A DNA stretch of 32,000 nucleotides, taken from contig CAXXGY010000001.1 in the NCBI GenBank assembly GCA_963667445.2, positions 1,757,387-1,789,386 on the forward strand, given 5' to 3'. Positions within the stretch are counted from its first letter, which is position 1. Every line of letters begins with the position of its first letter. The position numbers and the translations under genes were made by a program. Origin of the DNA: Dehalococcoidia bacterium (GTDB lineage: Bacteria; Chloroflexota; Dehalococcoidia; Lucifugimonadales; CATOSD01). Of this stretch, positions 9,506 through 31,162 are shown piece after piece. The notes below the pieces were generated by a model, which saw only the letters and a program-made list of their open reading frames with translations, made no database searches and had not been told where the DNA came from.

Positions 9506-9652
9506 GTAGTGGTTAGTGATTAGTTCTTAGTTGTTAGTTGTTAGTTGTTAGTTGGGGGGCAACAGCGTGGATCCCCTTCACGCACCTGACTACTGGCCAC
9601 TGATCACTAACCACTAATAACTGACCACTAACTACTAACCACTAACCACTGG
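9506..9652. repeat. Palindromic element built from inverted blocks of 7-bp tandem repeats (copy A)
   Basis: Left arm: gtggtta gtgatta gttctta gttgtta gttgtta gttgtta gttgg. A GC-rich loop of about 30 nt follows. Right arm: tgactac tggccac tgatcac taaccac taataac tgaccac taactac taaccac taaccac, the complementary heptamers. AT-rich in a GC-rich genome. It shares the 5' end GGGAGG(T/A)AGTGGTTAGTG with the copy at 18024. Confidence 0.7.
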
Positions 9653-9662
9653 AGACTGCCGA

Positions 9663-15805: not shown

Positions 15806-15882
15806 TGGTAGCGCATAGGGGATTCGAACCCCTGATCTCCGCCTTGAGAGGGCGGTGTCCTGGGCCACTAGACGAATGCGCC
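15806..15882 (-). tRNA. tRNA-Glu (anticodon CTC), CCA encoded
   Basis: Reverse complement is GGCGCATTCGTCTAGTGGCCCAGGACACCGCCCTCTCAAGGCGGAGATCAGGGGTTCGAATCCCCTATGCGCTACCA. It folds as a 77-nt cloverleaf with anticodon stem CCGCC/GGCGG, loop CTCTCAA and T-loop TTCGAAT. The G1-U72 wobble is slightly unusual. Confidence 0.82.
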
Positions 15883-15910
15883 ACGCAAAGGCCCGCTTGG
15901 AGCGCCAAGC

Positions 15911-15984
15911 TGGCTGGGGATCGAGGATTCGAACCTCGGCCTACGGATCCAGAGTCCGTCGTTCTGCCACTAGACTAATCCCCA
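15911..15984 (-). tRNA. tRNA-Gln (anticodon CTG), CCA encoded
   Basis: Reverse complement is TGGGGATTAGTCTAGTGGCAGAACGACGGACTCTGGATCCGTAGGCCGAGGTTCGAATCCTCGATCCCCAGCCA. Acceptor TGGGGAT/ATCCCCA, anticodon stem ACGGA/TCCGT, loop CTCTGGA, T-loop TTCGAAT. Confidence 0.9.
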
Positions 15985-16130
15985 GCGCATCTGTATTTTA
16001 TCAAGCGTATTTCGCCATTTCAAGCCCAACCTCGTCCACGCTCCCGCCGTCTTTCCCGCGCAGGAACGTCACCCCCGCGAAAGCGAGGGCGGGAATCCGG
16101 CGGGACGGGGCCGCAACACGGAGAAAGCTC

Positions 16131-17132
16131 TTGAAGATAGGACTGTTTCTGAACACCCAGACGCCCGACAACGACAAGCTGCCGTCCGTCATCGCCGAAA
16201 GCGCCGAGCAGGTGCGCGCCGCGCGCGACGCCGGATTCGACGTCATCTGCGCCGGCCAGCACTACCTGTCCTCGCCCTACTCCCAGCCCGCCACGCTGCC
16301 GTTCCTCGCGCGCATGGCCGCAGAGTCGGGCGACATGGCCCTGTGCGCCGGCATCATCCTGCTGCCGCTCCACAACCCCGTGGACATAGCCGAGACCGTC
16401 GCCACCATGGACGCCATCACCAACGGGCGGTTCATCTTCGGCATCGGGCTCGGCTACCGCGACGAGGAGTACGCCGCGTTCGGCGTCCGCCGTTCCGAGC
16501 GCGTCCCCCGCATGACCGAGGCGCTCGATGTCATACGCAAGCTGTGGTCTGAGGACGAGGTCGAGCACCGGGGACGCTTCTACCACGTGCCCAGGTCCAA
16601 CCCCACCACGCGGCCCGTGCAGAAGCCGCACCCGCCCATCTGGGTGGCCGCCAACCACGACAACGCCATCCGCCGCGCCGGACGCTGGGGCTACCCCTGG
16701 ATGATCAACCCGCACGCCACCATGTCCATGATCGCCGAGCAGATTCCGCTCTACCGCGACGCGCTCGCCGACGGCGGCCAGCCGGATCCCGGCGAGCTGC
16801 CGCTGGTGCGCGAGATGTACGTCGCCGCCGACAGGGAGACGGCTTTCGTGGAGAGCCAGCCCTACCTGGAGGGCAAGTACGCCGCCTACGCCTCCTGGGG
16901 CCAGGACAAGGCGCTGCCCGGCGAGGAGGATTTTACGATTCCCTACGCCGACCTCGCCCGCGACAGGTTCGTGCTCGGCGCCCCCGACGACATCGTGCGC
17001 GAGATCGAGCGTTACGAGCGTGACCTGGGCATCACCCACATCCTCTTCCGTATGCAGTGGCCCGGAATGCCGCACGACCAGGTCCTGCGCCAGCTCGACA
17101 TCCTCGACCGCGACGTGGTGCCGCGCATCTAG
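16131..17132 (+). CDS. LLM-class (luciferase-like) flavin/F420-dependent oxidoreductase
   Basis: TTG 16131 with GGAG 7 nt upstream. The track ORF start at 15855 would overlap both tRNAs and was rejected. (M)KIGLFLNTQ..., GFDVICAGQHY, FIFGIGLGYRDEEYAAFG, PHPPIWVAA and LGITHILFRMQWPGM are typical of the luciferase-like monooxygenase family. Confidence 0.85.
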   Translation: MKIGLFLNTQTPDNDKLPSVIAESAEQVRAARDAGFDVICAGQHYLSSPYSQPATLPFLARMAAESGDMALCAGIILLPLHNPVDIAETVATMDAITNGRFIFGIGLGYRDEEYAAFGVRRSERVPRMTEALDVIRKLWSEDEVEHRGRFYHVPRSNPTTRPVQKPHPPIWVAANHDNAIRRAGRWGYPWMINPHATMSMIAEQIPLYRDALADGGQPDPGELPLVREMYVAADRETAFVESQPYLEGKYAAYASWGQDKALPGEEDFTIPYADLARDRFVLGAPDDIVREIERYERDLGITHILFRMQWPGMPHDQVLRQLDILDRDVVPRI

Positions 17133-17170
17133 CCCTGCCTGAACCCAGATACTACAAAGGAGCCGCCACC

Positions 17171-18040
17171 ATGAAACTAGGCGTAGTTTTTCCGCAGACC
17201 GAGATAACCTCAGACGCCGGCGCCGTCAGGGAGTACGCGCAGGCCGCCGAGGAGCTGGGCTATAACCACCTGCTGGCGTTCGACCACGTGCTGGGCGCGA
17301 ACGCCGACAGCCGCCCGGGCTGGAGCGGCGCCTATCGCCACACGGACCAGTTCCACGAGCCGTTCGTGCTATTCGGCTACCTGGCGGGCGTCACCGAGCG
17401 CATCGAGCTTGTGACCGGCGTCATCATCCTGCCCCAGCGCCAGACCGCGCTCGTGGCGAAGCAGACCGCCGCGGTGGACGTGCTGAGCGGCGGACGGCTG
17501 CGACTGGGCATAGGCGTGGGCTGGAACGCCGTGGAGTACGAGGCGCTCGGTGAGAATTTTCATGATCGGGGGCTGCGCTCGGAAGAGCAGATCGAGCTGA
17601 TGCGCCGATTGTGGACGGAAGAATTGATAACGTTCGAGGGCCGTTGGCACAAGGTCACCGACGCGGGCATCAACCCGCTGCCCGTCCAGCGTCCCATCCC
17701 GGTGTGGCTCGGGGGCCGCGCGCCGCAGACCATCAGCCGCATCGCGCGCATGGGCGACGGCTGGTTCCCGCTGTTCCCGCCGGACGACGAGGGCCGCGCC
17801 TTGATAGAGGATCTGCGCGAGCAGACTACCGCCGCCGGGCGCGACCCCGACGCCATCGGCATCGAGAGCTGGGTGTCGATAGGCCGAGGCTCCCCCGACG
17901 ACTGGGCCGCCGTCGTCGAAAGCTGGCGCGAGCTCGGCGCGACGCACATATCGGTGAACACCATGAACGCTGGCCTGTCGTCGCCGGCCGAGCACATCGA
18001 GGCGATACGGCGGTTCAGGGAGGAAGTGGTTAGTGGTTAG
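17171..18040 (+). CDS. LLM-class F420-dependent oxidoreductase (Rv2161c-like subgroup)
   Basis: ATG 17171 with AAAGGAG upstream. MKLGVVFPQTEITSDAGAVREYAQAAEELGYNHLLAFDHVLGA..., RLRLGIGVGWNAVEYEALG and PIPVWLGG are present. The stop codon lies inside the heptamer-repeat element. Confidence 0.88.
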   Translation: MKLGVVFPQTEITSDAGAVREYAQAAEELGYNHLLAFDHVLGANADSRPGWSGAYRHTDQFHEPFVLFGYLAGVTERIELVTGVIILPQRQTALVAKQTAAVDVLSGGRLRLGIGVGWNAVEYEALGENFHDRGLRSEEQIELMRRLWTEELITFEGRWHKVTDAGINPLPVQRPIPVWLGGRAPQTISRIARMGDGWFPLFPPDDEGRALIEDLREQTTAAGRDPDAIGIESWVSIGRGSPDDWAAVVESWRELGATHISVNTMNAGLSSPAEHIEAIRRFREEVVSG

Positions 18041-18182
18041 TGATCAGTGGTTAGTTATTAGTTATTAGTGGTTAGTTGTTAGTGGGTCAGTGGCCGTGGT
18101 CTGCGTATCGCCCGCAGTCTGGTGGCGAACCACTGATAACTGATAACTGACCTACTGAACAACTGACAAACTGGCCTACTAA
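18024..18182. repeat. Palindromic element built from inverted blocks of 7-bp tandem repeats (copy B)
   Basis: Left arm: gtggtta gtggtta gtgatca gtggtta gttatta gttatta gtggtta gttgtta gtgggtca. A GC-rich loop follows. Right arm: gaaccac tgataac tgataac tgaccta ctgaaca... It lies between convergent genes and contains both of their stop codons. Confidence 0.7.
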
Positions 18183-19363
18183 TCGTTGGTCCACAACTCG
18201 GTGTCTGGGTAGTAGTCGCTCCAGCCGAACCAGAAGGCGTTGAAGGATGGGTACGTCTCCAGACGCTCGCCCTCCAACTCGCCCGCCAGGGCCACGCCGG
18301 TCAGCTTGTTCCACGTCGAGCCGGTCTCGGCGTCCACCATCTCGTCCGAGGCGTCGCCCTGCTCGAACGTCAGCGCGCGGTCGCCCACGCGCCGGCCGAA
18401 CGCGCCCACCGAGCCGCTGGCGTCGTCTCGCGCCACCACTATCTCCGCGCCCTCGAACACGTCGTTCACCACCTGGGCGCTGTCCAGGTCGGCGTGAGCG
18501 TAGGCCCTCTGTGAGCTATCGCCTACGAGTCCCAGCACTAGCTGCTTGATGGACAGACGCTCGTCGCTGTTCGCCTCCGGCATGATCCCGGTCCTGGGGC
18601 TGATGTAGTAGCTCGAGTATGAGTCATAGGGCCGGCTACCCGTGTCCAGCGCGAGCGTGTCCGGATGCTCCGCCTTCCAGTCGCCCCAGGTGGTCAGCCG
18701 GGACGGGACCAGCGTCAGCCGCTCGCCGAGCAGCGGCCCCTCGACCGCCTCGCCCAGGAACTGGCTCCACAGCGTCTCCGTCTCCCTGTCGTACATCACG
18801 AGGGCGTTCATGATGAGCTTGCCGGACACCCCGAACGTCAGCGTCTCCGCCTTCACCGTGCGGGCATACACTATGCCCGTGAAGCAGAGCGGTCACCACG
18901 TTACCGCTACCGGCTCACCGCCCACCGTGTCGTTGACGATCTCGTGGCCGCTCAGGAACGCCGTGGAGTAGGCCCTGTGCTCATCCCCGATAGACAGCCC
19001 GATGACGAGATGCCCGTCGCTCATCAGCTCCGACGCCCGCTCGACGTTCAGAAACTCGGGGTCGTCGATGGAGGGGATGGCGTCGCGCGGCAGCACCGTG
19101 CGAATCTCCAGCGCGCCGGCGTCCGGCTGTGGCGCGGGCGTCGGGGTCACGCGCGTTCTGGTCGGCCCGGCGCCGCCGCTCGGCTTGGACGGCTCCTGGG
19201 CGGGACCGAGGCGCGTGGGGGGCAGGCCGCCGTTCGCAGGCGCCGCAGCGCCCGGCGCCACGTCGACGCCGGCGGGTGTCGCCTCTGGCGCGGCGCTTTC
19301 GGTGGAGCACGCCGCGAGCAGAGCAGTCACGAACACCGCCAGCGCCACGAGGCGCTCTCTCAC
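18179..19363 (-). CDS. DUF3179-family secreted lipoprotein with one in-frame TGA (18893-18895): candidate selenoprotein or recent pseudogene
   Basis: Track ORFs 18893..19444 and 18179..18871 are in the same frame (1185 nt in total) and separated only by the TGA. The joined protein reads ...HEIVNDTVGGEPVAVTW-[TGA]-PLCFTGIVYARTVKAETLTFGVSGKLIMNALVMYDRETETLWSQ..., the DUF3179 core. The N-terminus has a lipobox (VFVTALLAAC). GTG 19363 overlaps the upstream esterase stop (GTGA). Confidence 0.7.
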
Positions 19364-20259
19364 ACCCAACTCTCCTCGAGAAACTCGCCGATGGCTTCGA
19401 TGGCCTGCTGGCCCTCGGGCAGTATCGGCGCGAAAAGGTGCCACGCGTGTACCATCTCCTCCCAGACCTGAAGCGTCGCATCGACGCCTGCGGCGCGTGC
19501 GCGCTCATCCAACCGCGTGGAGTCGTCGTACAGCGTCTCGGATGTGCCCACCTGTATCAGCAGGGGCGGCAGCCCTCGCAGGTCGGCGTAGATGGGCGCG
19601 GCCAGCGGCGTTCGCGCGTCCGCGCCCGCCAGGTACGCGGCAGCCGAATCGAGCAGGCCCTCGCGTCCCACCATCAGGTCCCACTTGGCCCGCGTCGTCA
19701 TGGACTCGCCCAATGTCTCCATGTCAACCCACGGCGATAGGCACACCCCCGCCGCGGGCAGAGAGTGCCCCGCGTCTCGCAGCGCCACCATCGCCGCGAC
19801 GGTCAGGCCGCCGCCCGCCGAGTCGCCCCCGATTGCCGCGCGCGCCGGATCGACGCCCTGCCCCACCAGCCAGCGGTACGCGGCGGTGGCGTCTTCCACC
19901 GCCGCGGGGTAGGGATGCTCCGGGGCGAGCCGGTAATCCAGCGCCAGCACGCGCGCGCCTGCTGCCGCCGACAGACGCCTCGCCAGCTCGCGGTGACTCT
20001 CAGGCGAGCCGGCGTTGTAACCGCCACCGTGCAGGTACAGCACCACGTGGCCCGCGTCCGCGCCCGGGGCGGACACCCACTCGGCCGGTACGCCGCCGGC
20101 GTCCACCTTCTCCGAGGACACGCCCGGCGTCGCGCCAAGCAAGCCGAAGAAGGCATCCATGCCCGCGCGTCGGTCCGCGACGCTTGGGCGTGTACCGCCC
20201 GTTGCCTGCCGGCGCATCTCCAGCATGTGCAGCACTCTCTCCAGTTCGGGGGATGGCAT
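19360..20259 (-). CDS. Alpha/beta-hydrolase fold-3 esterase/lipase (HSL family)
   Basis: HGGG oxyanion motif (VVLYLHGGGYNAG), nucleophile elbow GDSAGG, LALDYRLAPEHPYPAA. ATG 20259 is preceded by GAGGTGA; the track start at 20298 lacks an RBS. Confidence 0.85.
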   Translation of the reverse strand: MPSPELERVLHMLEMRRQATGGTRPSVADRRAGMDAFFGLLGATPGVSSEKVDAGGVPAEWVSAPGADAGHVVLYLHGGGYNAGSPESHRELARRLSAAAGARVLALDYRLAPEHPYPAAVEDATAAYRWLVGQGVDPARAAIGGDSAGGGLTVAAMVALRDAGHSLPAAGVCLSPWVDMETLGESMTTRAKWDLMVGREGLLDSAAAYLAGADARTPLAAPIYADLRGLPPLLIQVGTSETLYDDSTRLDERARAAGVDATLQVWEEMVHAWHLFAPILPEGQQAIEAIGEFLEESWV

Positions 20260-20552
20260 GATTTCACCTCGTCGTTGCATCTGCGCTACTGGTATCAATC
20301 TTACACCAAGCGCTGACTGGCCCGCCGTCGCCCCCCGGAGACCGTCACTCGCCCTGTGAAGCGAGGCTCCTGTGCGCTCTCAACCGCCGGCTTGCCAAGT
20401 CCTTGACATCGCCCTTAATCGTTGTTAACGTTCGCCCCAATCGTCTTCTGGTCGACGGGGGAGGGCCGTGTGGCCGCGACTTGAGACCGCCCATGAGAGG
20501 CGGGCGCCAAGCACATCCCCGTCTCAAAACCGCAACCCGGCAGGAGGACAAG

Positions 20553-22715
20553 TTGAAGAGAGCACGATCGAAGCTAGCAGTTTTCGCGTTGGTCGCGATT
20601 ATGGCCGCATTCGCGCTGGCTGTAGTCGCCTGCGCCTCCGCGGAAGAAGAGGCGCCACCCACGCCGACGCCTGTAGACGTGTCGGGCATAATCAGCCAGG
20701 TGATGGCTGCCCAGCAGCCCGGGGTGACCACCGCAGACGTGACAGCCGCAATCCAGGCGGCGTTGGCCGAGCAGGAGGGTCTCACCTCCGCGGACGTGGC
20801 CAACGAGATAGCCAAGGCGCTGAGCGCGCAACCCGGCGTGACTTCCAGCGAAGTGGCATCGGCAATCGCGAGCGCGCTGGACGCGCGCCCCGGCGTTACC
20901 AGCCAGGACGTGGCGAATGAGATAGCCAGGGCGCTGAGCGCGCAGCCCGGCGTGACCGAGGAACAGGTCGCGGCCGCCATCGCGTCCGCGATGGCCGAAC
21001 GCCCCGGCATCACCGAAGCCCAGGTCGCCGCCATCGTCGATAAGGCGATGGAAGAGCAGCAGAGCGAAATCATCGCCGCCGTCACCGAGTCGATAAACGT
21101 CAGCCTGGACGCGCCCGCACCGGTCGTTACCGGCGAGGCCCAGTACGGCGGTACACTCGTCACCATCGAGGCGGGGAACCTTCAGTCCATCGACTTCCAC
21201 CGGGTGCTCAGCATTGGCACCATGCAGTGGTTCGCCAACATCCACCTGAATCTGCTGGAGGTCGATACGCAGACCCGCGACAGGGTGATAGGCGACGTTG
21301 CCGAGTCATGGGATGTCAGCGACGACGGCACCCAGTGGACCTTCAACATCCGAGAGGGCCTCACCACGCATCAGGGCAACACCTTCGACGCTGAGGACGT
21401 TCGCTACAACATCTGGCGCTGGCTCAACCAGCCAAACGACGTTGTAATGGCTCGCGCCGGCTGCGTTCGCAACACCACCATCGACGTGTCGTCACCGGAC
21501 GCGCATACCGTGATCATGACCACAGGCTCCGAGGCCGGGCCCGCGCCCGCGGCGTCCTTCCTGAACTGCATCAGCCAGGCGTACCTGCTGCTTCAGCCCA
21601 AGGGTAATATGACTCCCGTGGACGAACCGGGCATGGACAGAGACCTGGAAGTCGAGGAAGTGGACGGCATCGGGCCGTTCATCTTCAACGAGTACGTGCC
21701 GGACAACATCATCAAGTCGACCAGGTTCGAGGACTACTACGAGAAGGACCCGGACCTGCCCTACCTGGACGCGTATCACTTCGCAATCATCACGGATGCC
21801 GCTTCCAGGATAGCGGCGTTCCGGACCCAGCGGGCGGACTTCTTCCCCACGTTCTCCACGCCCCGCAAGCCCGAGGCCGACCAGCTCAAGAAACAGTACG
21901 GCGACGCTATTACATACGTTCGCGTTCTCGCGCCCGGCAAGCGCGGCCTGCCGATAAACAACAACAGGCCCCCGTTCGACAACCCTAACATTCGCCAAGC
22001 GATGCACTTGGCCATAGACCGCCACGCGGTGAACGCGCTCCACCACGACGGCGTTGGCTTCTTGGCTGCCCCGTACCTGGGCATGTGGGACTGGATATAC
22101 TCCTTCGACGACTACTACACCTGGCCCGGCTTCCGTTCCTACCCCGAGGGCCGCTTCGATGAAGACCTGGCAGAGTCCAAGCGCCTGCTCGAGGCCGAGG
22201 GCTACAGCGAGAGCAACCCGCTGAAGGTCTCGATCCTATCGGGCACCACCGAGTCCGACGAGATTACGATTGGGGACTCGCTTGACGACTCCTGGATCGA
22301 GGTCAGCTTCGACAGGGTGACCGGACCCGAAAACCGCGCGAGGAGGGCCAGCACGGAGTACGACACCTACTTCGAGAGTAAGGGCACCGAGTTCAACGAC
22401 CCCGACGCCTACAACGGCCTGCTCTACATTCCGACCGCGGGCTTCAACTATACAAAGTGGCAAGACGACCGCTGGCTGGAGTTGAACGAGCTGCAGAAGG
22501 TGGAACTCGACCAGGCCCAGCGCGGCGTTTACCTGCGCGAGATGGCGGACATCATCTTCGACGCGCAGATATTCGTTGGCGTGATACGTCCCCGCCTCAA
22601 CCAGATAAACTGGAGCTACATGGTCGGTTACGTCCACCCCAAGTTTACCCACCAGTCCACCTACCGATGGGACCACGTCTGGCTGAACAGGGACGCCGGC
22701 GCGCCGGATCGCTAA
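20553..22715 (+). CDS. ABC transporter substrate-binding lipoprotein, family 5 (peptide/nickel type), with N-terminal 20-aa repeat stalk
   Basis: TTG 20553 lies 5 nt after GGAGGA. Signal peptide and lipobox: KRARSKLAVFALVAIMAAFALAVVAC. SBP_bac_5-like core: WDVSDDGTQWTFNIREGLTTHQGNTFDAEDVRYN, NRPPFDNPNIRQAMHLAIDR. Confidence 0.88.
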   Translation: MKRARSKLAVFALVAIMAAFALAVVACASAEEEAPPTPTPVDVSGIISQVMAAQQPGVTTADVTAAIQAALAEQEGLTSADVANEIAKALSAQPGVTSSEVASAIASALDARPGVTSQDVANEIARALSAQPGVTEEQVAAAIASAMAERPGITEAQVAAIVDKAMEEQQSEIIAAVTESINVSLDAPAPVVTGEAQYGGTLVTIEAGNLQSIDFHRVLSIGTMQWFANIHLNLLEVDTQTRDRVIGDVAESWDVSDDGTQWTFNIREGLTTHQGNTFDAEDVRYNIWRWLNQPNDVVMARAGCVRNTTIDVSSPDAHTVIMTTGSEAGPAPAASFLNCISQAYLLLQPKGNMTPVDEPGMDRDLEVEEVDGIGPFIFNEYVPDNIIKSTRFEDYYEKDPDLPYLDAYHFAIITDAASRIAAFRTQRADFFPTFSTPRKPEADQLKKQYGDAITYVRVLAPGKRGLPINNNRPPFDNPNIRQAMHLAIDRHAVNALHHDGVGFLAAPYLGMWDWIYSFDDYYTWPGFRSYPEGRFDEDLAESKRLLEAEGYSESNPLKVSILSGTTESDEITIGDSLDDSWIEVSFDRVTGPENRARRASTEYDTYFESKGTEFNDPDAYNGLLYIPTAGFNYTKWQDDRWLELNELQKVELDQAQRGVYLREMADIIFDAQIFVGVIRPRLNQINWSYMVGYVHPKFTHQSTYRWDHVWLNRDAGAPDR
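20673..21100 (+). repeat. About seven in-frame 60-bp (20-aa) tandem repeats within the SBP gene
   Basis: Units include QPGVTTADVTAAIQAALAEQ, EGLTSADVANEIAKALSAQ, PGVTSSEVASAIASALDAR, PGVTSQDVANEIARALSAQ, PGVTEEQVAAAIASAMAER and PGITEAQVAAIVDKAMEEQ, plus partial flanking units. Confidence 0.85.
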
Positions 22716-22800
22716 CCGGCGGTCCCTGAGGAAATAAGCAACCCCAACCACCAGCCGCCCGCCGTGCAATGGCGGGCGGCTGAATCACTTTCTCAGCGCC

Positions 22801-23760
22801 ATGCAGCAATACATCCTTAGACGCCTCTTCCTGTTCATTCCTACGCTCATCCTGGTAAGCGTGATTATCTTCACCATGCTCAGGATAGTGCCGGGCGACC
22901 CGGTGCTGCTCATTCTCGCCGGGCCCGAAGGTGAGGGATCGTACACACAAGAAGATTACGAGATGATGAGGGAGCAGCTCGGCTTCAACGACCCTTTCTA
23001 CGTCCAGTACTTCAGATGGTCGTACGGACTTATCACGCTGGACTGGGGCCGCTCGCTCCAGACCAACGAGAGGGTCACGGATATCTTCAAGCGGCGCTAC
23101 CCCGTAACCCTGCAACTGGCGCTGCTGTCGTTCCTGGTCATCTCCACCATAGGCATACCCATAGGCGTGCTGGCCGCCGTCAAACAGGACACGTGGGTGG
23201 ACTACCTGTTCAGGAGCTTCGCCATACTCGGCCTCGCAATGCCCACGTTCTGGCTGGCGTTGCTCATACTGCTGGCCCTGTCTATCTGGTTCAACTGGAT
23301 ACCTCCACTCGAGTTCGTACACCTGTGGGAGGACCCCAGGACCTCTATCACGCAGCTCATATTCCCCGCTATCGCGCTGGGACTGAGCGCCCAGGGCACG
23401 ACGATGCGCATGACACGCTCGCAGTTGCTGGAGGTGATGCGCGAGGACTACGTGCGCACCGCCAGGGCAAAGGGTCTCGCGGAGCGACTGGTCATTTTCC
23501 GCCACGCGATACGCAACTCCGTGCTGCCGGTGCTGACCATCCTCGGCCTGCTGCTGGGCGCGTTGTTGGGCGGCACTATCGTAATCGAGATAGTCTTCAA
23601 CATTCCGGGGCTGGGCCGCCCCGTCATCAACGCGGTCGGCTCGCTGGACCAGCCGGTGCTCCAGGTCATAGTAGTGGCGTTCACTCTCATATTCCTGGTG
23701 CTCAACCTGTTGGTCGACATCGCTTACGCGCTGCTGGACCCCCGAATAAGGTACTCATAG
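22801..23760 (+). CDS. ABC transporter permease (DppB/OppB-like)
   Basis: 319 aa. The opening MQQYILRRLFLFIPTLILVSVIIF is typical. The EAA-like region YVRTARAKGLAERLVIFRHAIRN and multiple TM helices are present. Confidence 0.9.
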   Translation: MQQYILRRLFLFIPTLILVSVIIFTMLRIVPGDPVLLILAGPEGEGSYTQEDYEMMREQLGFNDPFYVQYFRWSYGLITLDWGRSLQTNERVTDIFKRRYPVTLQLALLSFLVISTIGIPIGVLAAVKQDTWVDYLFRSFAILGLAMPTFWLALLILLALSIWFNWIPPLEFVHLWEDPRTSITQLIFPAIALGLSAQGTTMRMTRSQLLEVMREDYVRTARAKGLAERLVIFRHAIRNSVLPVLTILGLLLGALLGGTIVIEIVFNIPGLGRPVINAVGSLDQPVLQVIVVAFTLIFLVLNLLVDIAYALLDPRIRYS

Positions 23761-23777
23761 GGGATGAGGGGGATACA

Positions 23778-24674
23778 ATGACGAGCATAGCGCGATCGAC
23801 GGAACTCGCGGACCTGCGGCCCAAGCGGACGTATCTGCAATCCTTCGTGCGCTTCCTTCGGCAGAAGCCGCTCGGTACGCTCGGCCTCGGAATCATGCTG
23901 GCGTTCGCCATCATGGCGCTGGTGTCTCCCTACGTGGTGCCCAAGGACATTCTTGAAACCAACCCCAGAACCATCCTGCAGGGACCCAGCGGCGACTCTT
24001 GGTTCGGTACCGACCAGTTCGGGCGCGACCTGTTCAGCCGCACCCTCTACGGCTCCCGCATATCGATGATGGTGGGATTCGCGGTGCTCATCATGGGCAC
24101 GACCCTCGGCGCCATACTGGCCATCATCACGGCCTACATCGGCGGCAAGGTGGATCTGCTCACACAGAGAGTCGTGGACGCCATGATGGCCATTCCAACG
24201 CTCGTCCTGGCGCTGACGATAATGTCGGTGCTCGGCGCGTCGATGTTCAACCTCATCCTGGCAATCTCGATAGCGACCTTACCCAACGCGCTCCGCACCG
24301 TCAGGTCCGTCGTCCTGTCCATCAAGGCCACACAGTACGTGGACAGCGCGCGCGCCACCGGCTGCACCAGTCTGCGCATCATGATGTTCCACGTCGCGCC
24401 CAACTGCATGGCGCCCTACCTCGTCATTGCCTCCGTGGCGCTCGGTGGCGCCATCCTGTCGGAGGCCAGCCTCAGCTTCCTCGGAGCGGGTGCGCCCGAG
24501 CAGACCGTCACCTGGGGGTCGCTGCTCAGCCGCGACAAGCTGCAATACTTCGCGCTGGCACCGTGGATGGCCATATTCCCCGGCCTGTTCCTCACGGCGC
24601 TCGTGTTCGGCATCAACGTGTTCGGCGACGCCCTCCGCGACGTGCTCGACCCCAGGCTGCGCGGCTCGCGGTAG
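23778..24674 (+). CDS. ABC transporter permease (DppC/OppC-like)
   Basis: ATG 23778 follows GAGGGGGA, in frame within track ORF 23016..24674. GTDQFGRDLFSRTLYGSRIS, YVDSARATGCTSLRIMMFHVAPN and C-terminal FGDALRDVLDPRLR are typical. Confidence 0.9.
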   Translation: MTSIARSTELADLRPKRTYLQSFVRFLRQKPLGTLGLGIMLAFAIMALVSPYVVPKDILETNPRTILQGPSGDSWFGTDQFGRDLFSRTLYGSRISMMVGFAVLIMGTTLGAILAIITAYIGGKVDLLTQRVVDAMMAIPTLVLALTIMSVLGASMFNLILAISIATLPNALRTVRSVVLSIKATQYVDSARATGCTSLRIMMFHVAPNCMAPYLVIASVALGGAILSEASLSFLGAGAPEQTVTWGSLLSRDKLQYFALAPWMAIFPGLFLTALVFGINVFGDALRDVLDPRLRGSR

Positions 24675-24699: not shown

Positions 24700-25053
24700 A
24701 TGGACGTAGGTGAACACGTGGTGAAGGCGCGGCAGTTCCTGGCGGACGCTGAGGGCGAATTCGCCACCGGCGACCACATGCAGGCCTCCGAGAAGATGTG
24801 GGGTGCCGCCGCGCACGCCATCATGGCCGTCGCCCAGCAACGCGGCTGGCGCTACGGCGGCCACCGCCGGATGATAGAGGCCACCCAACGTATCGCGTCC
24901 GAACTTGACGATGAGGATTTGCGCTCGGGATTGGAGGCGTCGCGGCAGCTTCACTCCAATTTCTATCACGACCACATCAAAGAGGATGAACTGGAAACCA
25001 TAACAGCGGGCGCACGCCGTTTCGTCCAGAAGATGCTGGCGCTGGTACAATAG
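24700..25053 (+). CDS. PaREP1/HEPN-like small helical protein (divergent paralogue A)
   Basis: ATG 24700, in frame within track ORF 24427..25053. 117 aa: KARQFLADAEGEFATGDHMQASEKMWGAAAHAIMAVAQQRGWRYGGHRRM...LHSNFYHDHI...FVQKMLALVQ. By recall this pattern matches the archaeal PaREP1 family and is shared with the 28.0-29.7 kb tandem genes. Confidence 0.7.
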   Translation: MDVGEHVVKARQFLADAEGEFATGDHMQASEKMWGAAAHAIMAVAQQRGWRYGGHRRMIEATQRIASELDDEDLRSGLEASRQLHSNFYHDHIKEDELETITAGARRFVQKMLALVQ

Positions 25054-25091
25054 AGCACTCGCCAAAGACGATTCGCGATATACCTCTACTA

Positions 25092-25484
25092 GTGAGAAAC
25101 GAGATTGAGGGGACTATCGATTTCATGGTCATCCAGGAACGCAAAGACACGGCTTTAAGGTTGCTGAAGGACGCTGATGGCGAGTTCGTCATCGGCTCCG
25201 ACTTGAAAGCCGCGACGATGATGTGCGACGCCGCAACCCATGCCATCAAGGCCGTAGCTGAGCATCGCGGCTGGCAGTGTCGAGACCTCGACTTCCGAGC
25301 GACTATGAAAGTCGGTCGGCGCATCGCGGACGAACTGGACGACAGCACGCTGCATCTGGGACTGATGGTGGCGGAAATGTTCCGTTTGCACGCTGATGTC
25401 GACTACTTGGAAGACTACGAAATCGAGCCGTACTACCAAGACGTGTGCAGCTTCGTTTACAAGATGCTGGCGCTGGTAGAATAG
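25092..25484 (+). CDS. PaREP1/HEPN-like small helical protein (divergent paralogue B, His of the R...H motif lost)
   Basis: 130 aa from GTG 25092 (start uncertain; ATG 25125 is an alternative). LLKDADGEFVIGSDLKAATMMCDAATHAIKAVAEHRGWQCRDLDFR...FRLHADVDY...FVYKMLALVE has the same architecture and C-terminal KMLALV as paralogue A. Confidence 0.6.
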   Translation: MRNEIEGTIDFMVIQERKDTALRLLKDADGEFVIGSDLKAATMMCDAATHAIKAVAEHRGWQCRDLDFRATMKVGRRIADELDDSTLHLGLMVAEMFRLHADVDYLEDYEIEPYYQDVCSFVYKMLALVE

Positions 25485-25496: not shown

Positions 25497-26708
25497 ATGA
25501 CCGAGTTGAGTGAATCCGAAGGGCTGCTTTCCGGTTACAAGGTGCTGGACCTGAGCTCCGGCGTCGCGGGTCCATACGCCACCCGGCTGATGGCCTCCAT
25601 GGGCGCCGACGTGGTGAAGGTCGAGCCGCCCGAAGGCGAAGTGTCCAGGCGCGAAGGCCCGTTCCCCGACGACGAGCCGCACCCCGAACGCAGCGCGCTG
25701 TACCTGTACCTCAACGTCGGCAAGCGGGGCGTGACTCTCGACCTCGACACGCCGACGGGCCAGGCGATGCTGCCTCGGCTGGCGTCGTGGGCCGACGTGC
25801 TCGTCGAGAGCTACCAACCCTCGCGCGCCGCGGAGATCGGCCTCAGCTACGATGCGCTCCACGAGTCCAACCCGTCGCTGGTGATGACGTCCGTAACCGA
25901 CTTCGGCCAGACCGGTCCGTATAGGGACCACAACGCCAGGACGCTGAACCACTACGCCTACGGCGGCCTGATGTACATCACGGGCCGCCCGGAGAAAGAA
26001 CCGCTACAGATGGGGCCGCGCGTGCCGGAGTACGGCACCGGCCAGAACGCCTTCGTCGCCACGCTGTCGGCGCTGTGGCACCGCGAGTCCACCGGCGAGG
26101 GCCAGCACGTCGACATCTCCGTCGCCGAGTACAGCGCGTCCATCCTCGAAAACGCGCTCACCATGTACAGCTACACCCGGCACAAGGTAACGCGCATGGG
26201 CCACCGCGGATACGGACGCGCCGCCTGGGGCATGTACCCCTGCAAGGACGGCTACGTGGGCGTCATAGCCGGCCCCGCACACCGCTGGCCCGCCATGGCT
26301 GAGCTTATGGAGGAGCCGCGACTGAACGACGAGCGATTCTCCACGGCCCGCGGACGCCAGGTGTACGCCGACGAACTGGAGGCGCTCATGGAGCCCTGGC
26401 TCATGCGCAACAACAAGCGCGAGATATTCGAGAAGGCGCAGAACATGGGCATCGCCTTCGCATACGTCGCCAGCCCCGGCGAGATATACTCGTGGGAGCA
26501 CCTGCGCGACCGCGAATACTTCGTCGAAATCGACCACCCCGAGGTTGGGACTCTGGACTACGCCGGCCCACCCTTCCAGCCGGAGGGCGTGCCGTTCAAC
26601 TGGTCCCGCGCCCCGCTGCTGGGCGAGCACAACGCCGAGGTGTACGGTGAAACGCTGTACCTATCTCCAGAAGAGCTAGTTACCCTGCGCGCCTCCGGCG
26701 TCATATAG
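25497..26708 (+). CDS. Family III CoA-transferase (CaiB/BaiF family)
   Basis: 403 aa. LSGYKVLDLSSGVAGPYATRLMASMGADVVKVEPPEG is the hallmark N-terminus. LLGEHNAEVY lies near the C-terminus. Confidence 0.9.
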   Translation: MTELSESEGLLSGYKVLDLSSGVAGPYATRLMASMGADVVKVEPPEGEVSRREGPFPDDEPHPERSALYLYLNVGKRGVTLDLDTPTGQAMLPRLASWADVLVESYQPSRAAEIGLSYDALHESNPSLVMTSVTDFGQTGPYRDHNARTLNHYAYGGLMYITGRPEKEPLQMGPRVPEYGTGQNAFVATLSALWHRESTGEGQHVDISVAEYSASILENALTMYSYTRHKVTRMGHRGYGRAAWGMYPCKDGYVGVIAGPAHRWPAMAELMEEPRLNDERFSTARGRQVYADELEALMEPWLMRNNKREIFEKAQNMGIAFAYVASPGEIYSWEHLRDREYFVEIDHPEVGTLDYAGPPFQPEGVPFNWSRAPLLGEHNAEVYGETLYLSPEELVTLRASGVI

Positions 26709-26730: not shown

Positions 26731-27999
26731 ATGACTAAGGCCCTCGAAGGCATAAGGATACTCGACCTCTCCCGCATATGGGCCGGCCCCTACGCCACCA
26801 AGCTGATGGCCGACATGGGCGCCGACATCATCAAGATAGAGTCGGTGGACCGGATGGACACCACCCGGGGCGGCATCAATCCGCCGTCCGGCTCCGGCAA
26901 CTATCCGGAGGCCGAGCCGGGCGAAGACCCCTGGAACCGCAACGGCTGGTTCAACTCGCTCCACCTGAGCAAGTACGGCGTCACCATCAACCTCGCCAAG
27001 GAGAGCGGCAAGGACCTGTTCTCCCACCTCGTCACCATCAGCGACGCCGTAATCGAAAACTACCGGCTGGGCGTGCTCACGCGGCTCGGTTTCGACTATG
27101 AAAAGCTGCGCTCCCTCAGGCCCGACATCGTGCTCATCTCCATGCCGGCGTTCGGCAATAAGGGCCGCTGGAAGGGCTTCGTGCAGTACGGCATAGGCCA
27201 GGAGCAGCTTTCCGGCATGGCCGACATGACCGGCTACTTGGACGAGGACGGCCCGATGAAGTCGGGCATCAACCACGGCGACCCCATAACCGGCTCGCAC
27301 GCCGCCGGCGCCATACTCGCGTCGCTACTCTACCGCAGGCGCACCGGCCGCGGCGTCTACGTGGACCTGTCGCAGCTAGACTCGTCGGTGTCGCTCATCG
27401 GCGACGCCATACTGGGCTTCCAGATGACCAACCGCAACCCCGAGCGCCGGGGCAACCGCCACCAGTACATGGCGCCGCACGGCATCTACAAGTGCCGCGG
27501 TGAAGAAGAGGAGTGGGTGGCTATCGCCGTCGCCTCCGACGAGGAGTGGCGCGCGCTGTGCGCCGCCATCGGCAAGCCCGGCCTCGCGGACGATGCGCGA
27601 TACGCCGACGTCCTGGGCCGCTGGCGCAGCCAGGACGAGTTGGACGCGGTGTTGTCCGAGTGGGCGAAGGACCAGGACAGCAACGCCGCCATGCAGGCGC
27701 TACAGGCCGTCGGCATCGCCGCCACCCCCGTCGAATCGTCGGAGATGATATTCGACGACCCGCACTACCAGGAGCGCGGCCTCATGGAGCTGGTCGACCA
27801 CCCCTCCACCGGCCCGCAGTTCATGCCCGGCATAAGCTGGAAGATGTCCAAGACGCCGGGCGAGGTGCGCTGGCCCACTCCCAGGCTCGGCGAGCACAAT
27901 GAGACGGTCTTCGGCGAGCTGCTGGGCCTCGACGCCGCCGAGTTGTCCGACCTCGAAGCCGAGGGCGTCATAGGCAACGTGCCCACCCGCGACAACTAG
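26731..27999 (+). CDS. Family III CoA-transferase (CaiB/BaiF family)
   Basis: 422 aa. LEGIRILDLSRIWAGPYATKLMADMGADIIKIES, PRLGEHNETVFGELLGL. Confidence 0.9.
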   Translation: MTKALEGIRILDLSRIWAGPYATKLMADMGADIIKIESVDRMDTTRGGINPPSGSGNYPEAEPGEDPWNRNGWFNSLHLSKYGVTINLAKESGKDLFSHLVTISDAVIENYRLGVLTRLGFDYEKLRSLRPDIVLISMPAFGNKGRWKGFVQYGIGQEQLSGMADMTGYLDEDGPMKSGINHGDPITGSHAAGAILASLLYRRRTGRGVYVDLSQLDSSVSLIGDAILGFQMTNRNPERRGNRHQYMAPHGIYKCRGEEEEWVAIAVASDEEWRALCAAIGKPGLADDARYADVLGRWRSQDELDAVLSEWAKDQDSNAAMQALQAVGIAATPVESSEMIFDDPHYQERGLMELVDHPSTGPQFMPGISWKMSKTPGEVRWPTPRLGEHNETVFGELLGLDAAELSDLEAEGVIGNVPTRDN

Positions 28000-28034
28000 C
28001 GCGGCGGGCGGTCGTGCTATAGGATTGACTTACG

Positions 28035-28430
28035 ATGACGACGCAACACGAAACGACAATCCAAGAGTACGTCGCCCAGGCGTTGGAGTTCCTCTCGCAG
28101 TCCGAGGCCGAGTTTGCGGCGGGCGACACGCGGCAGGGTGCCGAGAAGCTGTACGGCGCGGCGTGCCAGGTAGTGATGGCTGCCGCCAAGCAGCGCGGCT
28201 GGGGTTACCGCTCGCACAGGGACAACAAGAACACCGCCATCAGACTGGCCGACGAGTACGGGGACCTTTCGTTATCCCTTGGCTTTGCGGCTGCCGAGAG
28301 GTTTCACGTCCACTTCTTCCACGGCGACATGGAGGACTACCAGATTGACGGGGACCGCCCCCAGGTGGGAGCCTACGTGCGGCGTATGGCGGCCCTCGTC
28401 GAGGAGTACGAGGCCAACGGTAGTGCGTGA
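28035..28430 (+). CDS. PaREP1/HEPN-like protein, tandem copy 1
   Basis: 131 aa: ...AQALEFLSQSEAEFAAGDTRQGAEKLYGAACQVVMAAAKQRGWGYRSHRDNKNTAIRLADEYGD...AAERFHVHFFHGDMEDY... ATG start. Confidence 0.75.
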   Translation: MTTQHETTIQEYVAQALEFLSQSEAEFAAGDTRQGAEKLYGAACQVVMAAAKQRGWGYRSHRDNKNTAIRLADEYGDLSLSLGFAAAERFHVHFFHGDMEDYQIDGDRPQVGAYVRRMAALVEEYEANGSA

Positions 28431-28467
28431 ATCCGAGCTACCGTTGTTGAACAAGGACTGACTTTCC

Positions 28468-28863
28468 GTGACGACGCAACACGAAACGACAGTCGAAGAA
28501 TGTGTCGCCCAGGCGTTGGAGTTTCTCGCGCAATCCGAGGCCGAGTTCGCGGCGGGCGACACGCGCCAGGGCGCGGAGAAGCTGTACGGCGCGGCGTGCC
28601 AGGTAGTGATGGCTGCCGCCAAGCAGCGCGGCTGGGGTTACCGCTCGCACAGGGACAACAAGAACACCGCCATCAGACTGGCCGACGAGTACGGGGACCT
28701 TTCGTTATCCCTTGGCTTTGCGGCTGCCGAGAGGTTTCACGTCCACTTCTTCCACGGCGACATGGAGGACTACCAGATTGACGGGGACCGCCCCCAGGTG
28801 GGAGCCTACGTGCGGCGTATGGCGGCCCTCGTCGAGGAGTACGAGGCCAACGGTAGTGCGTGA
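28468..28863 (+). CDS. PaREP1/HEPN-like protein, tandem copy 2
   Basis: 131 aa, GTG start. Differs from copy 1 at 4 N-terminal residues (V9/I, E10/Q, C12/Y, A21/S). Confidence 0.75.
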   Translation: MTTQHETTVEECVAQALEFLAQSEAEFAAGDTRQGAEKLYGAACQVVMAAAKQRGWGYRSHRDNKNTAIRLADEYGDLSLSLGFAAAERFHVHFFHGDMEDYQIDGDRPQVGAYVRRMAALVEEYEANGSA

Positions 28864-28900
28864 ATCCGAGCTACCGTTGTTGAACAAGGACTGACTTTCC

Positions 28901-29296
28901 GTGACGACGCAACACGAAACGACAGTCGAAGAATGTGTCGCCCAGACGTTGGAGTTTCTCGCGCAATCCGAGGCCGAGTTCGCGGCGGGCGACACGCGCC
29001 AGGGCGCCGAGAAGCTGTACGGCGCGGCGTGCCAGGTCGTCATAGCCGCGGCCAAGCAGCGCGGCTGGAGTTACCGCTCGCACCGAGCCACCCAGAACGC
29101 CGCCACGAGACTGGCCGACGAATACGACGACCCATTACTGACGAACGGATTCACGGCTGCCGAGAGGTTTCACATCCACTTCTTTCATGGCGACATGGAG
29201 GACTACGAGATAGACTCCTCCCGCCCTGGAGTGAGCGCATACGTGCGGCACATGGCCGGCCTCGTCGAGGAGTACGAGGCCAACGGCAGAGCGTGA
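28901..29296 (+). CDS. PaREP1/HEPN-like protein, tandem copy 3
   Basis: 131 aa, GTG start. Variant central and C-terminal segment: RGWSYRSHRATQNAATRLADEYDDPLLTNGFTAAERFHIHFFHGDMEDYEIDSSRPG. Confidence 0.75.
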   Translation: MTTQHETTVEECVAQTLEFLAQSEAEFAAGDTRQGAEKLYGAACQVVIAAAKQRGWSYRSHRATQNAATRLADEYDDPLLTNGFTAAERFHIHFFHGDMEDYEIDSSRPGVSAYVRHMAGLVEEYEANGRA

Positions 29297-29333
29297 AACC
29301 GCTCTATCGTCGTTCGATAAGGACTGATTCTCC

Positions 29334-29735
29334 GTGACGACACAAAACGAAACGACAGTCGAAGAATGTGTCGCCCAGGCGTTGGAGTTTCTCGCGCAAT
29401 CCGAGGCCGAGTTCGCGGCGGGCGACACGCGCCAGGGCGCCGAGAAGCTGTACGGCGCGGCGTGCCAGGTCGTCATAGCCGCGGCCAAGCAGCGCGGCTG
29501 GAGTTACCGCTCGCACCGAGCCACCCAGAACGCCGCCACGAGACTGGCCGACGAATACGACGACCCATTACTGACGAACGGATTCACGGCTGCCGAGAGG
29601 TTTCACATCCACTTCTTTCATGGCGACATGGAGGACTACGAGATAGACTCCTCCCGCCCTGGAGTGAGCGCATACGTGCGGCACATGGCCGGCCTCGTCG
29701 AGCAATACCACAAGGCCCCTGGACATGGTGGATAA
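29334..29735 (+). CDS. PaREP1/HEPN-like protein, tandem copy 4 (altered C-terminus at the repeat boundary)
   Basis: 133 aa, GTG start. Nearly identical to copy 3 until ...MAGLVE, then QYHKAPGHGG. Overlaps the sat start by 11 nt. Confidence 0.72.
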   Translation: MTTQNETTVEECVAQALEFLAQSEAEFAAGDTRQGAEKLYGAACQVVIAAAKQRGWSYRSHRATQNAATRLADEYDDPLLTNGFTAAERFHIHFFHGDMEDYEIDSSRPGVSAYVRHMAGLVEQYHKAPGHGG

Positions 29736-30960
29736 CACCCTCTCACCACACGGCGGCGTCCTCGTCGACCGGGTAGCGACGCAACCAGTGTCCGCCGCCT
29801 CCCTGCGCGGGCTCAAGTCCATCGCCATACGCGACCAGATAGCCCACGAGTGCGTAAGCATCGCCTACGGCTTCTTCTCGCCCCTTGAAGGCTTCATGCT
29901 GCGCGAGGACGTGGATGCCGTCTGCGACCGCATGACCCTCGCGAGCGGCTACGTCTGGAGCGTGCCTGTCGTCTTTGACATCTCCCGTGCCGACGTCGAC
30001 CGTCTGTCCCTGCGAGAGGGCGACACGCTGCTGCTGACCCACGAGAGTCAGCCGGTGGCGACGCTGGACGTGGAGCAGCTCTACTCATTCGACAAGCAGC
30101 ACATGGCCGCTGCCGTTTACGGCACCACGGACGCCAACCACCCCGGCGTGCAGCGCACCTACGCCTACGAGGACGTATTCGTCGGCGGCAAGATTACCCT
30201 GGTCAACCCACCCACCATCAACCCGCCGTTCGACCGCTTCTGGTATCCGCCCTCGGCCATGCGCCGGCGCTTCGCCGACAACGACTGGGGCCGCGTGGCT
30301 GCGCACCAGACGCGCAACGTTCCGCACGCCGGCCACGAGTGGCTGATGAAGGGCGCCTGGTTCGCCGCCAACGCGGACGCGGTGCTGGTCAACGCCGTAA
30401 TCGGCGAGAAGAAGCCAGGCGACTTCATCGACGAGGCCATCATCCTGGCCCACGACGTGCTGCGCGATGCGGGCTACTTCCGCCAGGACGTCCACATGGC
30501 GTCCATGCTGCTGTGGGACATGCGCTACGCCGGCCCGCGAGAGGCCGTGTTCCACGCCATCGTGCGCAAGAACCTCGGCTGCACCCACCACATGTTCGGT
30601 CGAGACCACGCGGGCGTCGGCTCCTACTACGACCCCTACGCCTCACACCGCATATTCGACGAGATACCGCCCATCGGCATCGAGCCGGTGGTTACGCTGG
30701 AGTGGTGGAACTGCCCCGTGTGCGCAGGCATAGCCTACGAGGGGTTGTGCGACCACGCGGACGTCAAGCAGGATCTCAGCGGCACCCTCATGCGCGCCAC
30801 GCTCGAGGGAGGCGTCACCCCGTCGCCGCTCATCTTCCGCGCCGAGGTCTTCGAGCTGGTCATGGAGTGCGCCCAGAAGTACGGCTTCGGCTCACCCTTC
30901 GTAACCGAGAACTACCTCCGCAACCGCCAGCCCGTGCTAACCTTCGGCCCCTTGGCGTAG
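29725..30960 (+). CDS. sat: Sulfate adenylyltransferase (ATP sulfurylase)
   Basis: 411 aa. LSPHGGVLVDRV opening, HQTRNVPHAGHEWLMK (variant of the QTRNP.HRAH motif), and the GRDHAGVG motif. Confidence 0.88.
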   Translation: MVDNTLSPHGGVLVDRVATQPVSAASLRGLKSIAIRDQIAHECVSIAYGFFSPLEGFMLREDVDAVCDRMTLASGYVWSVPVVFDISRADVDRLSLREGDTLLLTHESQPVATLDVEQLYSFDKQHMAAAVYGTTDANHPGVQRTYAYEDVFVGGKITLVNPPTINPPFDRFWYPPSAMRRRFADNDWGRVAAHQTRNVPHAGHEWLMKGAWFAANADAVLVNAVIGEKKPGDFIDEAIILAHDVLRDAGYFRQDVHMASMLLWDMRYAGPREAVFHAIVRKNLGCTHHMFGRDHAGVGSYYDPYASHRIFDEIPPIGIEPVVTLEWWNCPVCAGIAYEGLCDHADVKQDLSGTLMRATLEGGVTPSPLIFRAEVFELVMECAQKYGFGSPFVTENYLRNRQPVLTFGPLA

Positions 30961-31086: not shown

Positions 31087-31162
31087 CGGGGTGTGGCCCA
31101 GTCGGTAGGGCGCTACGTTCGGGACGTAGAGGTCGCGAGTTCAAGTCTCGCCACCCCGACCA
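31087..31162 (+). tRNA. tRNA-Pro (anticodon CGG), CCA encoded
   Basis: CGGGGTGTGGCCCAGTCGGTAGGGCGCTACGTTCGGGACGTAGAGGTCGCGAGTTCAAGTCTCGCCACCCCGACCA. Acceptor CGGGGTG/CACCCCG, anticodon stem CTACG/CGTAG, loop TTCGGGA, T-loop TTCAAGT. Confidence 0.9.

Follow-up and report, generated by a model that had tools for sequence, protein, structure and literature searches.

A recombining tandem array of PaREP1-type HEPN-fold genes in a Dehalococcoidia genome

The PaREP1/PaREP8 proteins are one of the few large branches of the HEPN superfamily to which neither an activity nor a partner has been assigned. The branch is listed as HEPN-T(Parep1/8) in Table 1 of Anantharaman et al. (2013), and PaREP1 is placed in Pfam clan CL0291. 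Two features of the branch were already described in the 2013 study, i.e., the occurrence of tandem PaREP genes and a variant of the Rx4–6H motif in which the His is conserved and the Arg is not. Reviews from 2009 to 2013 regarded the family as essentially crenarchaeal and thermophilic. Here, we describe an array of four tandem PaREP1 genes in a stretch of 32,000 nt (hereafter the window) from a metagenome-assembled genome (MAG) of a Dehalococcoidia bacterium (Chloroflexota). We are highly confident that the array encodes stand-alone PaREP1-type HEPN-fold proteins and that it has the recombination history set out below, the two claims being taken jointly.

Tandem Repeats Finder reports a single long-period array in the window (28021–29648; period 433, 3.8 copies, 92% matches, 0% indels, score 2433), in which each 433-bp unit carries an AAGGA that resembles a ribosome-binding site, one PaREP1 gene and a spacer of 37 nt. 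The starts of the four open reading frames (ORFs) are exactly 433 bp apart, and their products are 131, 131, 131 and 133 aa long, confirming what an earlier note on this DNA had described. The same note had the last copy overlapping the start of sat, and the stop codon of copy 4 (29733–29735) and the ATG of sat (29725) do overlap, by 11 nt; the Pfam matches of sat are those of an ATP sulfurylase. The copy 1 protein is 100% identical to the database protein P0001, which is encoded on a 2.99-Mb contig, and the copy 3 protein is identical to P0018. Two ORFs in alternative frames (28933–29337 and 29366–29776) were rejected as coding and are considered Arg-rich shadows; the PaREP1 frame is favoured because its products match Pfam and because its ratio of nonsynonymous to synonymous substitution rates (dN/dS) is below 1. 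A hairpin lies across the stop codon of copy 1 (28415–28446; 9-bp stem, 14-nt loop) and again in copy 2 (28848–28879), and copy 3 carries one with another stem sequence at the same place (29283–29310). These hairpins have no T-run and are therefore not intrinsic terminators.

All four copies match Pfam PF05942 (PaREP1) over model positions 2–109 of 115, with E-values of 1e-13 to 4e-12 and scores of 46.4–51.6 bits, compared with a gathering score of 24.4 bits. An AlphaFold2 model from 37 homologues (pLDDT 93.9, pTM 0.88) has five helices at residues 9–28, 32–54, 61–75, 79–96 and 101–129. A Foldseek search against the PDB placed 2q00/2jpu, a PaREP1-family structure, at ranks 1–2 (TM-scores 0.68/0.73, root-mean-square deviation 2.6, 119 columns), and the highest TM-score was that of 2hsb (AF0298 HEPN; 0.75/0.77). 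Foldseek probabilities were 0.97–1.0 for 2hsb, 1wol, 1o3u, 3o10_C (sacsin HEPN), 4nqf and 1ufb and 0.77–0.95 for the HepT chains 7ae6, 6m6u and 7bxo; the E-values (2e-3 to 0.5) are of the weak kind that small helical bundles usually give. These matches show that the predicted fold is the up-and-down helical bundle of the HEPN core. Searches of the PDB sequences with a single protein and with a close-clade profile (A1) returned nothing relevant, and only a broadened family profile (A2) reached 2jpu/2q00 (E = 3.6e-5) and 2hsb (E = 6.4e-4); a search of NCBIfam with the array proteins returned no family. We make the PaREP1/HEPN assignment because Pfam, the profile-to-PDB search and the fold ranking agree. 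The PaREP1 membership proposed in the earlier note is thus upheld for all four copies (46–52 bits against 24.4), as is the link it made between PaREP1 and HEPN, for which Anantharaman et al. (2013), clan CL0291 and the fold search all speak.

The four units were compared position by position, with unit coordinates counted from 14 nt 5′ of each start codon. Copies 1 and 2 show 16 differences, every one in unit positions 4–121, and are identical at unit positions 122–432 (28143–28453 = 28576–28886; 311 bp), the spacer included. Copies 2 and 3 show only two differences, both private substitutions, in unit positions 0–150, and 62 beyond. Copies 3 and 4 show five differences in unit positions 0–59 and are identical at unit positions 60–382 (28947–29269 = 29380–29702; 323 bp), after which copy 4 departs from the repeat into unique sequence. 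Copy 1 and copy 3 can be told apart at 78 sites. Up to unit position 118 there are 16 such informative sites, and copy 2 agrees with copy 3 at 15 of them; from unit position 151 onward it agrees with copy 1 at all 62, a partition that is not due to chance. The mosaic had been described earlier in the same terms, which proved correct in every detail that could be checked, and its attribution to unequal crossing-over or gene conversion is borne out by the partition of informative sites.

One unequal crossover within the junction interval of copy 2 (Table 1) explains the mosaic. In an ancestor with three copies (copy 1, copy 3 and copy 4), in which copy 3 on one chromatid paired with copy 1 on the other, an exchange that joined the 5′ part of copy 3 to the 3′ part of copy 1 yields exactly the order copy 1, chimera (copy 2), copy 3. 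A second recent duplication or conversion produced the identity of copies 3 and 4 over 323 bp. The identical blocks arose very recently. Comparison of the 3′ types, A in copies 1 and 2 and B in copies 3 and 4, gives dS 0.70, dN 0.15 and dN/dS 0.22; the first 37 codons of copy 1 differ from those of the other copies with dS 0.34–0.41 and dN/dS 0.15–0.22, and copies 3 and 4 differ by three substitutions over 123 codons. The A and B variants are old paralogue types, because dS is about 0.7, and are under purifying selection, because dN/dS is 0.22; they have recently been reshuffled. The earlier description of these genes as diversifying does not survive this estimate.

The same process is visible in related genomes. 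The gene order at the array locus (transporter, PaREP1, two CoA-transferase genes, array, sat) is the same in eight other Dehalococcoidia MAGs, in which the array has one, two or three copies, so that the range is 1–4 with the window included. In two single-copy arrays (L005 and L008), the copy before sat carries a KAPQHGG-type tail like that of copy 4. The array thus expands and contracts by unequal homologous recombination between its units. Within arrays, the first 150 nt are 92–99% identical, compared with 86% between genomes, whereas the 3′ remainder is 78–88% identical within arrays (the 100%-identical pairs 1/2 and 3/4 excluded), compared with 81% between genomes. The unrelated arrays of loci L069 and L072 display the same contrast. 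Family-wide, the 5′ half of the gene (helices 1–2) is homogenised within arrays, and the 3′ half (helices 3–5) stays diverse, which fits repeated 5′ homogenisation rather than positive diversifying selection. A strain-variant chimera or a mis-resolved repeat in the assembly would be another source of such a pattern, as the MAG origin and the exactly identical blocks of 311 and 323 bp might suggest. However, the unit spacing is exact, the four frames are intact, independent related assemblies have two to three copies at the same locus and up to six elsewhere, the 2.99-Mb contig suggests a long-read assembly, and the array is only 1.7 kb long. We regard an assembly artefact as very improbable.

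The close family comprises 239 database proteins, all annotated PF05942 and, where named at NCBI, called "PaREP1 family protein [Chloroflexota bacterium]", and the wider profile covers 1455 representative clusters. The 132 encoding stretches that a genome scan gave are from MAGs of Dehalococcoidia, SAR202, Acidimicrobiia and "Candidatus Spongiisociaceae", and a genome has several such loci. The last of these names is a lead to a sponge-symbiont habitat that comes from MAG and taxon names only; the literature on Spongiisocius gave no habitat. Counts of runs cover the 80 sources with matches, i.e., 79 loci and the window. A survey of homologues for tandem amplification, as the earlier note had proposed, found tandem runs of two to six copies in 26 of these 80 sources; the 107 runs consist of 80 single genes, 22 pairs, 3 triplets, one run of four (the window) and one of six. 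Two genomes that were tallied have 7–8 PaREP1 copies each in their stretches. The largest array lies on a 4.25-Mb Dehalococcoidia chromosome (L072, 9998–12394) and consists of six tandem genes with a period of 400–407 bp, the 5′ halves being 90–96% and the 3′ halves 70–85% identical; two further copies occur within 20 kb (the region 14352–14732 was noted).

At least eight syntenic contexts were distinguished among the fetched loci, mostly metabolic or housekeeping, and the PaREP1 genes are co-directional with their neighbours. Besides that of the window, the contexts include a site 5′ of the gene for ribosomal protein L25, a site flanked by a MacB-type transporter and an FAD oxidoreductase, sites that follow TlyA or AcrB, a neighbourhood of luciferase-like, MiaB-like and NadA genes (L072, eight copies with the six in tandem), and one in which PaREP1 genes are interleaved with enoyl-CoA hydratase and CoA-transferase genes (L081). 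At L081 (ERZ25072076 contig, 2911951–2926346), five PaREP1-like genes alternate singly with genes for enoyl-CoA hydratase and for two family III CoA-transferases. PaREP1 and CoA-transferases thus occur together at a second locus that is not syntenic with the first, and two of the L081 paralogues have weak PF05168 (HEPN) matches. No gene, whether MNT, DUF1626, RHH or other, is common to different contexts among the at least eight examined. Clustering of 4,501 neighbouring ORFs from the loci and the window (blastp, single linkage) found partners shared only inside individual syntenic groups. In the largest group, PaREP1 is followed by a small gene of about 105 aa (cluster 7), which was considered as a PaREP1 relative and rejected (hhalign probability 0.1%). 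There is no adjacent MNT gene at the window, where the neighbours are CoA-transferases and sat, at L080–L084 or in the other context groups, as had been claimed for the window alone; an MNT/NTase_sub_bind pair at L084 is 4.5 kb away on the opposite strand. The genes therefore have the multi-copy, often tandem and MNT-less character of PaREP1/PaREP8 (six copies in the window), and they do not have the adjacent MNT gene of the HEPN-MNT (type VII) toxin–antitoxin systems.

The earlier note had taken RGWGYRSH (R54-x6-H61) as the HEPN motif. However, R54-x6-H61 sits at the helix 2–3 junction, off the canonical site, and the alignments with 2q00 and AF0298 put the motif elsewhere: the helix-4 segment A-A-E-R-F-H91 is aligned with S-A-W-T-L-H of 2q00 and D-L-R-E-E-S-D-Y of AF0298. 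This places the canonical position at A86/A87...H91 in helix 4, with the Arg lost and the His kept, a mapping that comes from low-identity HMMER alignments and is possibly one residue off. This is the motif variant of PaREP1/8, and H91 is nearly invariant in the clade. R59-S60-H61-R62 is aligned with K-T-H-R of AF0298, the His of which is the second conserved His N-terminal to the motif that Anantharaman et al. proposed to be part of the active site. Residues invariant or nearly so in the close clade are E26, G30, D31, Q34, E37, K38, R54, G55, W56, H61, R62, E88, H91, H93 and E100. In 131 domains of the 150 best representative clusters, R54 is conserved in 82%, G55 in 84%, W56 in 78%, E37 in 78% and K38 in 70%. 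While the test for the canonical HEPN motif failed, a plausible site of two His with Arg and Glu appears to be retained, as judged from the conserved residues. A candidate functional site would combine H91 with H61/R62, R54 at the helix 2–3 junction, E26 and E37-K38.

The window contains six PaREP1-like genes, not four, two divergent ones being located 3 kb upstream of the array. The first of these keeps E26, E37-K38, R54-G-W, H61 and H91, and its orthologue at L080 is likewise 117 aa long. The second has T-M in place of E37-K38, F in place of H61 and R in place of H91. The two may form a heterodimer of an intact and a degenerate subunit. Of the 150 best representative homologues, 14 are two-domain PaREP1 fusions (P0123, P0130, P0138, P0139, P0143, P0145, P0147, P0160 and others; 240–290 aa), and among the eight that were read, several have one domain lacking H61 and/or H91, an arrangement of intact and degenerate domains that mirrors the upstream gene pair. 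The P0145 fusion is not a one-off gene-calling error, because its cluster holds 10 members, mostly of 287–290 aa, with two of 145 aa. By analogy with other HEPN domains, PaREP1 proteins probably act as dimers, and neighbouring tandem copies would supply partners for homo- and heterodimers.

The array is part of a co-directional gene run, i.e., an ABC peptide transporter, two PaREP1 genes, two CoA-transferase genes, the four PaREP1 genes and sat, in which the gaps between PaREP1 genes and their neighbours are 12–38 nt. When the array was scanned, the + strand yielded neither promoter-like nor terminator-like sites, and the − strand yielded two terminator-like ones, fewer than in shuffles. The GC content of the array (0.62–0.64) is similar to that of its flanks, and an origin of the array as a foreign island was rejected on that ground. 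The reading that we favour, and consider probable, is a recombining tandem array of dimer-forming PaREP1/HEPN proteins, possibly RNases, that are co-expressed with metabolic genes. The most likely activity of the proteins would be to bind RNA or to cleave it without a metal, at a level that constitutive co-expression with metabolic genes would allow. RNase activity of the array proteins is a tentative suggestion drawn from their residues, and a non-catalytic binding role is about as likely. A classical toxin–antitoxin pair is unlikely, because there is no antitoxin-like partner, the chromosomal positions are conserved and copy 4 is translationally coupled to sat. Several points weigh against the favoured reading. 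The start of the last core helix lacks the canonical Rx4–6H, an Ala occupying the Arg position, and in the 131 domains mentioned above H91 is conserved in 67% and H61 in 60%. The translational coupling between copy 4 and sat would fit poorly with a toxic RNase, and we found in the literature no demonstrated activity of any PaREP1 protein. Finally, the window comes from a MAG, and the repeat copy number rests on the assembly.

The array proteins could instead be non-catalytic HEPN-fold adaptors, or binders of a small ligand or metal, that serve the neighbouring genes or have a general accessory role, the conserved His and Glu binding a ligand rather than cleaving RNA. This is a possible alternative, to which we give less than even credence. 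Without exception, the genes run in the same direction as closely spaced genes for CoA-transferase, enoyl-CoA hydratase, luciferase-like monooxygenase, rpL25, TlyA and MiaB-like proteins, they keep their positions from genome to genome and evolve under purifying selection, the Arg of the canonical motif is absent, copy 4 is translationally coupled to sat, and HEPN domains without the motif act as binding domains according to the literature. However, at least eight unrelated neighbourhoods are too heterogeneous for one pathway-specific role, a housekeeping accessory protein would not usually have 7–10 copies per genome and be amplified in tandem, and the invariant set of His, Arg and Glu is retained. 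A more elaborate proposal, which we hold to be distinctly unlikely, is that recombination has made of the arrays a repertoire of HEPN subunits, which as homo- or heterodimers would be RNases without antitoxins and with differing RNA specificities. Unequal crossover would re-assort a constant N-terminal half (helices 1–2) with variable C-terminal halves (helices 3–5), the latter flanking the His pocket. If true, the lineage-specific expansions of HEPN proteins in eukaryotic immunity would have an operon-embedded counterpart in bacteria, namely in Dehalococcoidia and Acidimicrobiia MAGs.

The earlier note had considered amplified HEPN-like genes typical of conflict and defence systems, which our results do not support here. 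PADLOC gave no meaningful match to the array proteins (DUF3644 only, E = 0.051 over 26 residues), PHROGs gave none, and a tblastn search of 72,556 plasmids found no homologue; the genes are located in co-directional, conserved metabolic or housekeeping clusters. The 80 of 107 runs that are single genes and the coupling of copy 4 to sat also speak against a defence role. That the array encodes a HEPN toxin, amplified and diversifying, which belongs to a conflict or defence system and has an antitoxin or trigger that is unrecognised or encoded elsewhere, is improbable. This explanation would draw on the membership of the proteins in the HEPN superfamily, on the lineage-specific expansion and tandem variation that the literature ties to defence, on Makarova 2013, which leaves paREP1/8 toxins with an unidentified antitoxin possible, on the degenerate paralogues, which could serve as antitoxin-like partners, and on the type I-E CRISPR-Cas locus 12 kb upstream of the array. 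Beyond the lack of PADLOC, PHROGs and plasmid matches, it is opposed by the dN/dS of 0.22, by the lack of a conserved partner in any of the 8 contexts, by loci that are syntenic across species and not mobile, and by the embedding of the genes in metabolic operons and their coupling to them. The syntenic L080 has no CRISPR-Cas genes, but it starts at the luciferase-like gene, and the equivalent cas region would lie beyond its start.

An orphan array of immunity-type proteins directed against secreted toxins of neighbouring bacteria is very unlikely. Tandem small helical paralogues with variable surfaces would suit such a function, acquired interbacterial defence clusters hold tandem variable helical proteins, and dense communities are the apparent habitat of the hosts (the sponge names being a lead only). 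However, no toxin, secretion or Rhs/CDI genes were found nearby in the window, invariant catalytic-type residues are untypical of immunity proteins, and we found no support for this explanation in the literature.

The features of the window are collected in Table 1. In the type I-E CRISPR-Cas locus, Pfam identifies cas3, cse2, cas7, cas5, cas6e, cas1 and cas2, and the locus was called complete; the ORF at the cse1 position (3979–5646) has no Pfam match. The CRISPR array that follows is roughly 4.6 kb long and has the repeat GGTTGCCCCGCGCGGGCGGGGATAGACC; within 14764–14913, neighbouring spacers are identical (period 61, 100% match). Two intergenic gaps, one between cas6e and cas1 and the other after the second luciferase-like gene, contain blocks of 7-nt tandem repeats of the TTAGTGG/TTAGTTG type (9507–9554 and 18025–18093), with complementary blocks of the CCACTAA type about 40 nt downstream (9597–9650 and 18128–18180), giving one long imperfect hairpin per gap. 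These may be a genome-specific REP-like or terminator element. Between the DUF3179 gene and the ABC transporter lies a 419-aa ORF (19002–20261) that matches nothing in Pfam or PHROGs.

Table 1. Location of the PaREP1 array, its parts and the other annotated features within the 32,000-nt window
Feature	Position	Strand	Evidence
PaREP1 tandem array, four 433-bp units	28021–29735	+	Tandem Repeats Finder, ORFs
Copy 1, 131 aa; own 5′ segment and type-A 3′ segment	28035–28430	+	ORF; Pfam PaREP1, E = 1e-13, 51.6 bits
Copy 2, 131 aa, GTG start; chimera of copy-3-type 5′ and copy-1-type 3′ segments	28468–28863	+	ORF, Pfam, unit comparison
Crossover-junction interval in copy 2	28573–28604	+	Last copy-3-like to first copy-1-like informative site
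Copy 3, 131 aa, GTG start; type-B 3′ segment	28901–29296	+	ORF, Pfam, unit comparison
Copy 4, 133 aa, GTG start; type B, own ...QYHKAPGHGG tail	29334–29735	+	ORF, Pfam, unit comparison
Two upstream PaREP1 paralogues	24700–25484	+	
Intact upstream paralogue, 117 aa, 34% identical to copy 1	24700–25053	+	Pfam E = 3.9e-13, 49.7 bits; family hidden Markov model (HMM) 104 bits
Degenerate upstream paralogue	25092–25484	+	Family HMM 74 bits; no Pfam match; GC 0.55
Family III CoA-transferase genes (two)	25497–26708, 26731–27999	+	Pfam CoA_transf_3, E = 4e-96 and 2e-105
sat (ATP sulfurylase)	29725–30960	+	Pfam PUA_2 and ATP-sulfurylase
Type I-E cas genes	45–10879		Pfam
CRISPR arrays	11043–15643		
Two tRNAs	15809–15984		
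Luciferase-like monooxygenases	about 15855–18040		
DUF3179 gene	18179–18871		
ABC peptide transporter	20403–24674		
tRNA	31087–31159		

In summary, the array belongs to a known family in an already described arrangement and is no new kind of system. What is new is modest: a large bacterial and apparently mesophilic clade with a QRGW...SHR element and conserved, operon-embedded positions, and a clean product of unequal crossover with copy-number polymorphism between related genomes. The bacterial clade is a convenient natural system in which to follow how a small tandem gene family expands and is homogenised, with a crossover product that can be dated. It also suits the question of whether PaREP1 proteins are RNases, as it is now clear which His and Arg residues should be mutated.

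Three described systems are close enough for comparison. The first is archaeal PaREP1/PaREP8 (PF05942; 2q00/2jpu, Sulfolobus solfataricus P95883), with which the array proteins share the five-helix HEPN-type fold, the E..GD..Q..EK.Y.A signature in helices 1–2, the helix-4 His and the loss of the motif Arg; the archaeal genes are likewise present in multiple copies per genome, often in tandem, and have neither an MNT partner nor a known function. The hosts here are Dehalococcoidia and Acidimicrobiia MAGs, whereas the archaeal hosts are thermophilic Crenarchaeota. The present clade has a conserved Q-R-G-W...S-H-R element at the helix 2–3 junction, which 2q00 does not have, and shows no RHH fusion and no DUF1626/MNT neighbour, unlike the archaeal proteins. 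Its genes are placed in conserved metabolic operons, whereas the archaeal ones are found in variable regions. The second is the AF0298/UPF0332-type HEPN-T (2hsb), which has the best TM-score of the fold search and the KTHR segment aligned with R59-S60-H61-R62. AF0298 has retained the Arg of the motif but not its His, whereas the array proteins show the reverse, with the Arg lost and H91 kept, at an identity of about 16%. The third is HepT/MntA (type VII toxin–antitoxin). While HepT/MntA has an adjacent MNT gene, an Rx4H motif and a mobile two-gene organisation, none of which is seen for the array in the contexts examined, the two have in common the HEPN fold, the small size and an expected function as dimers.

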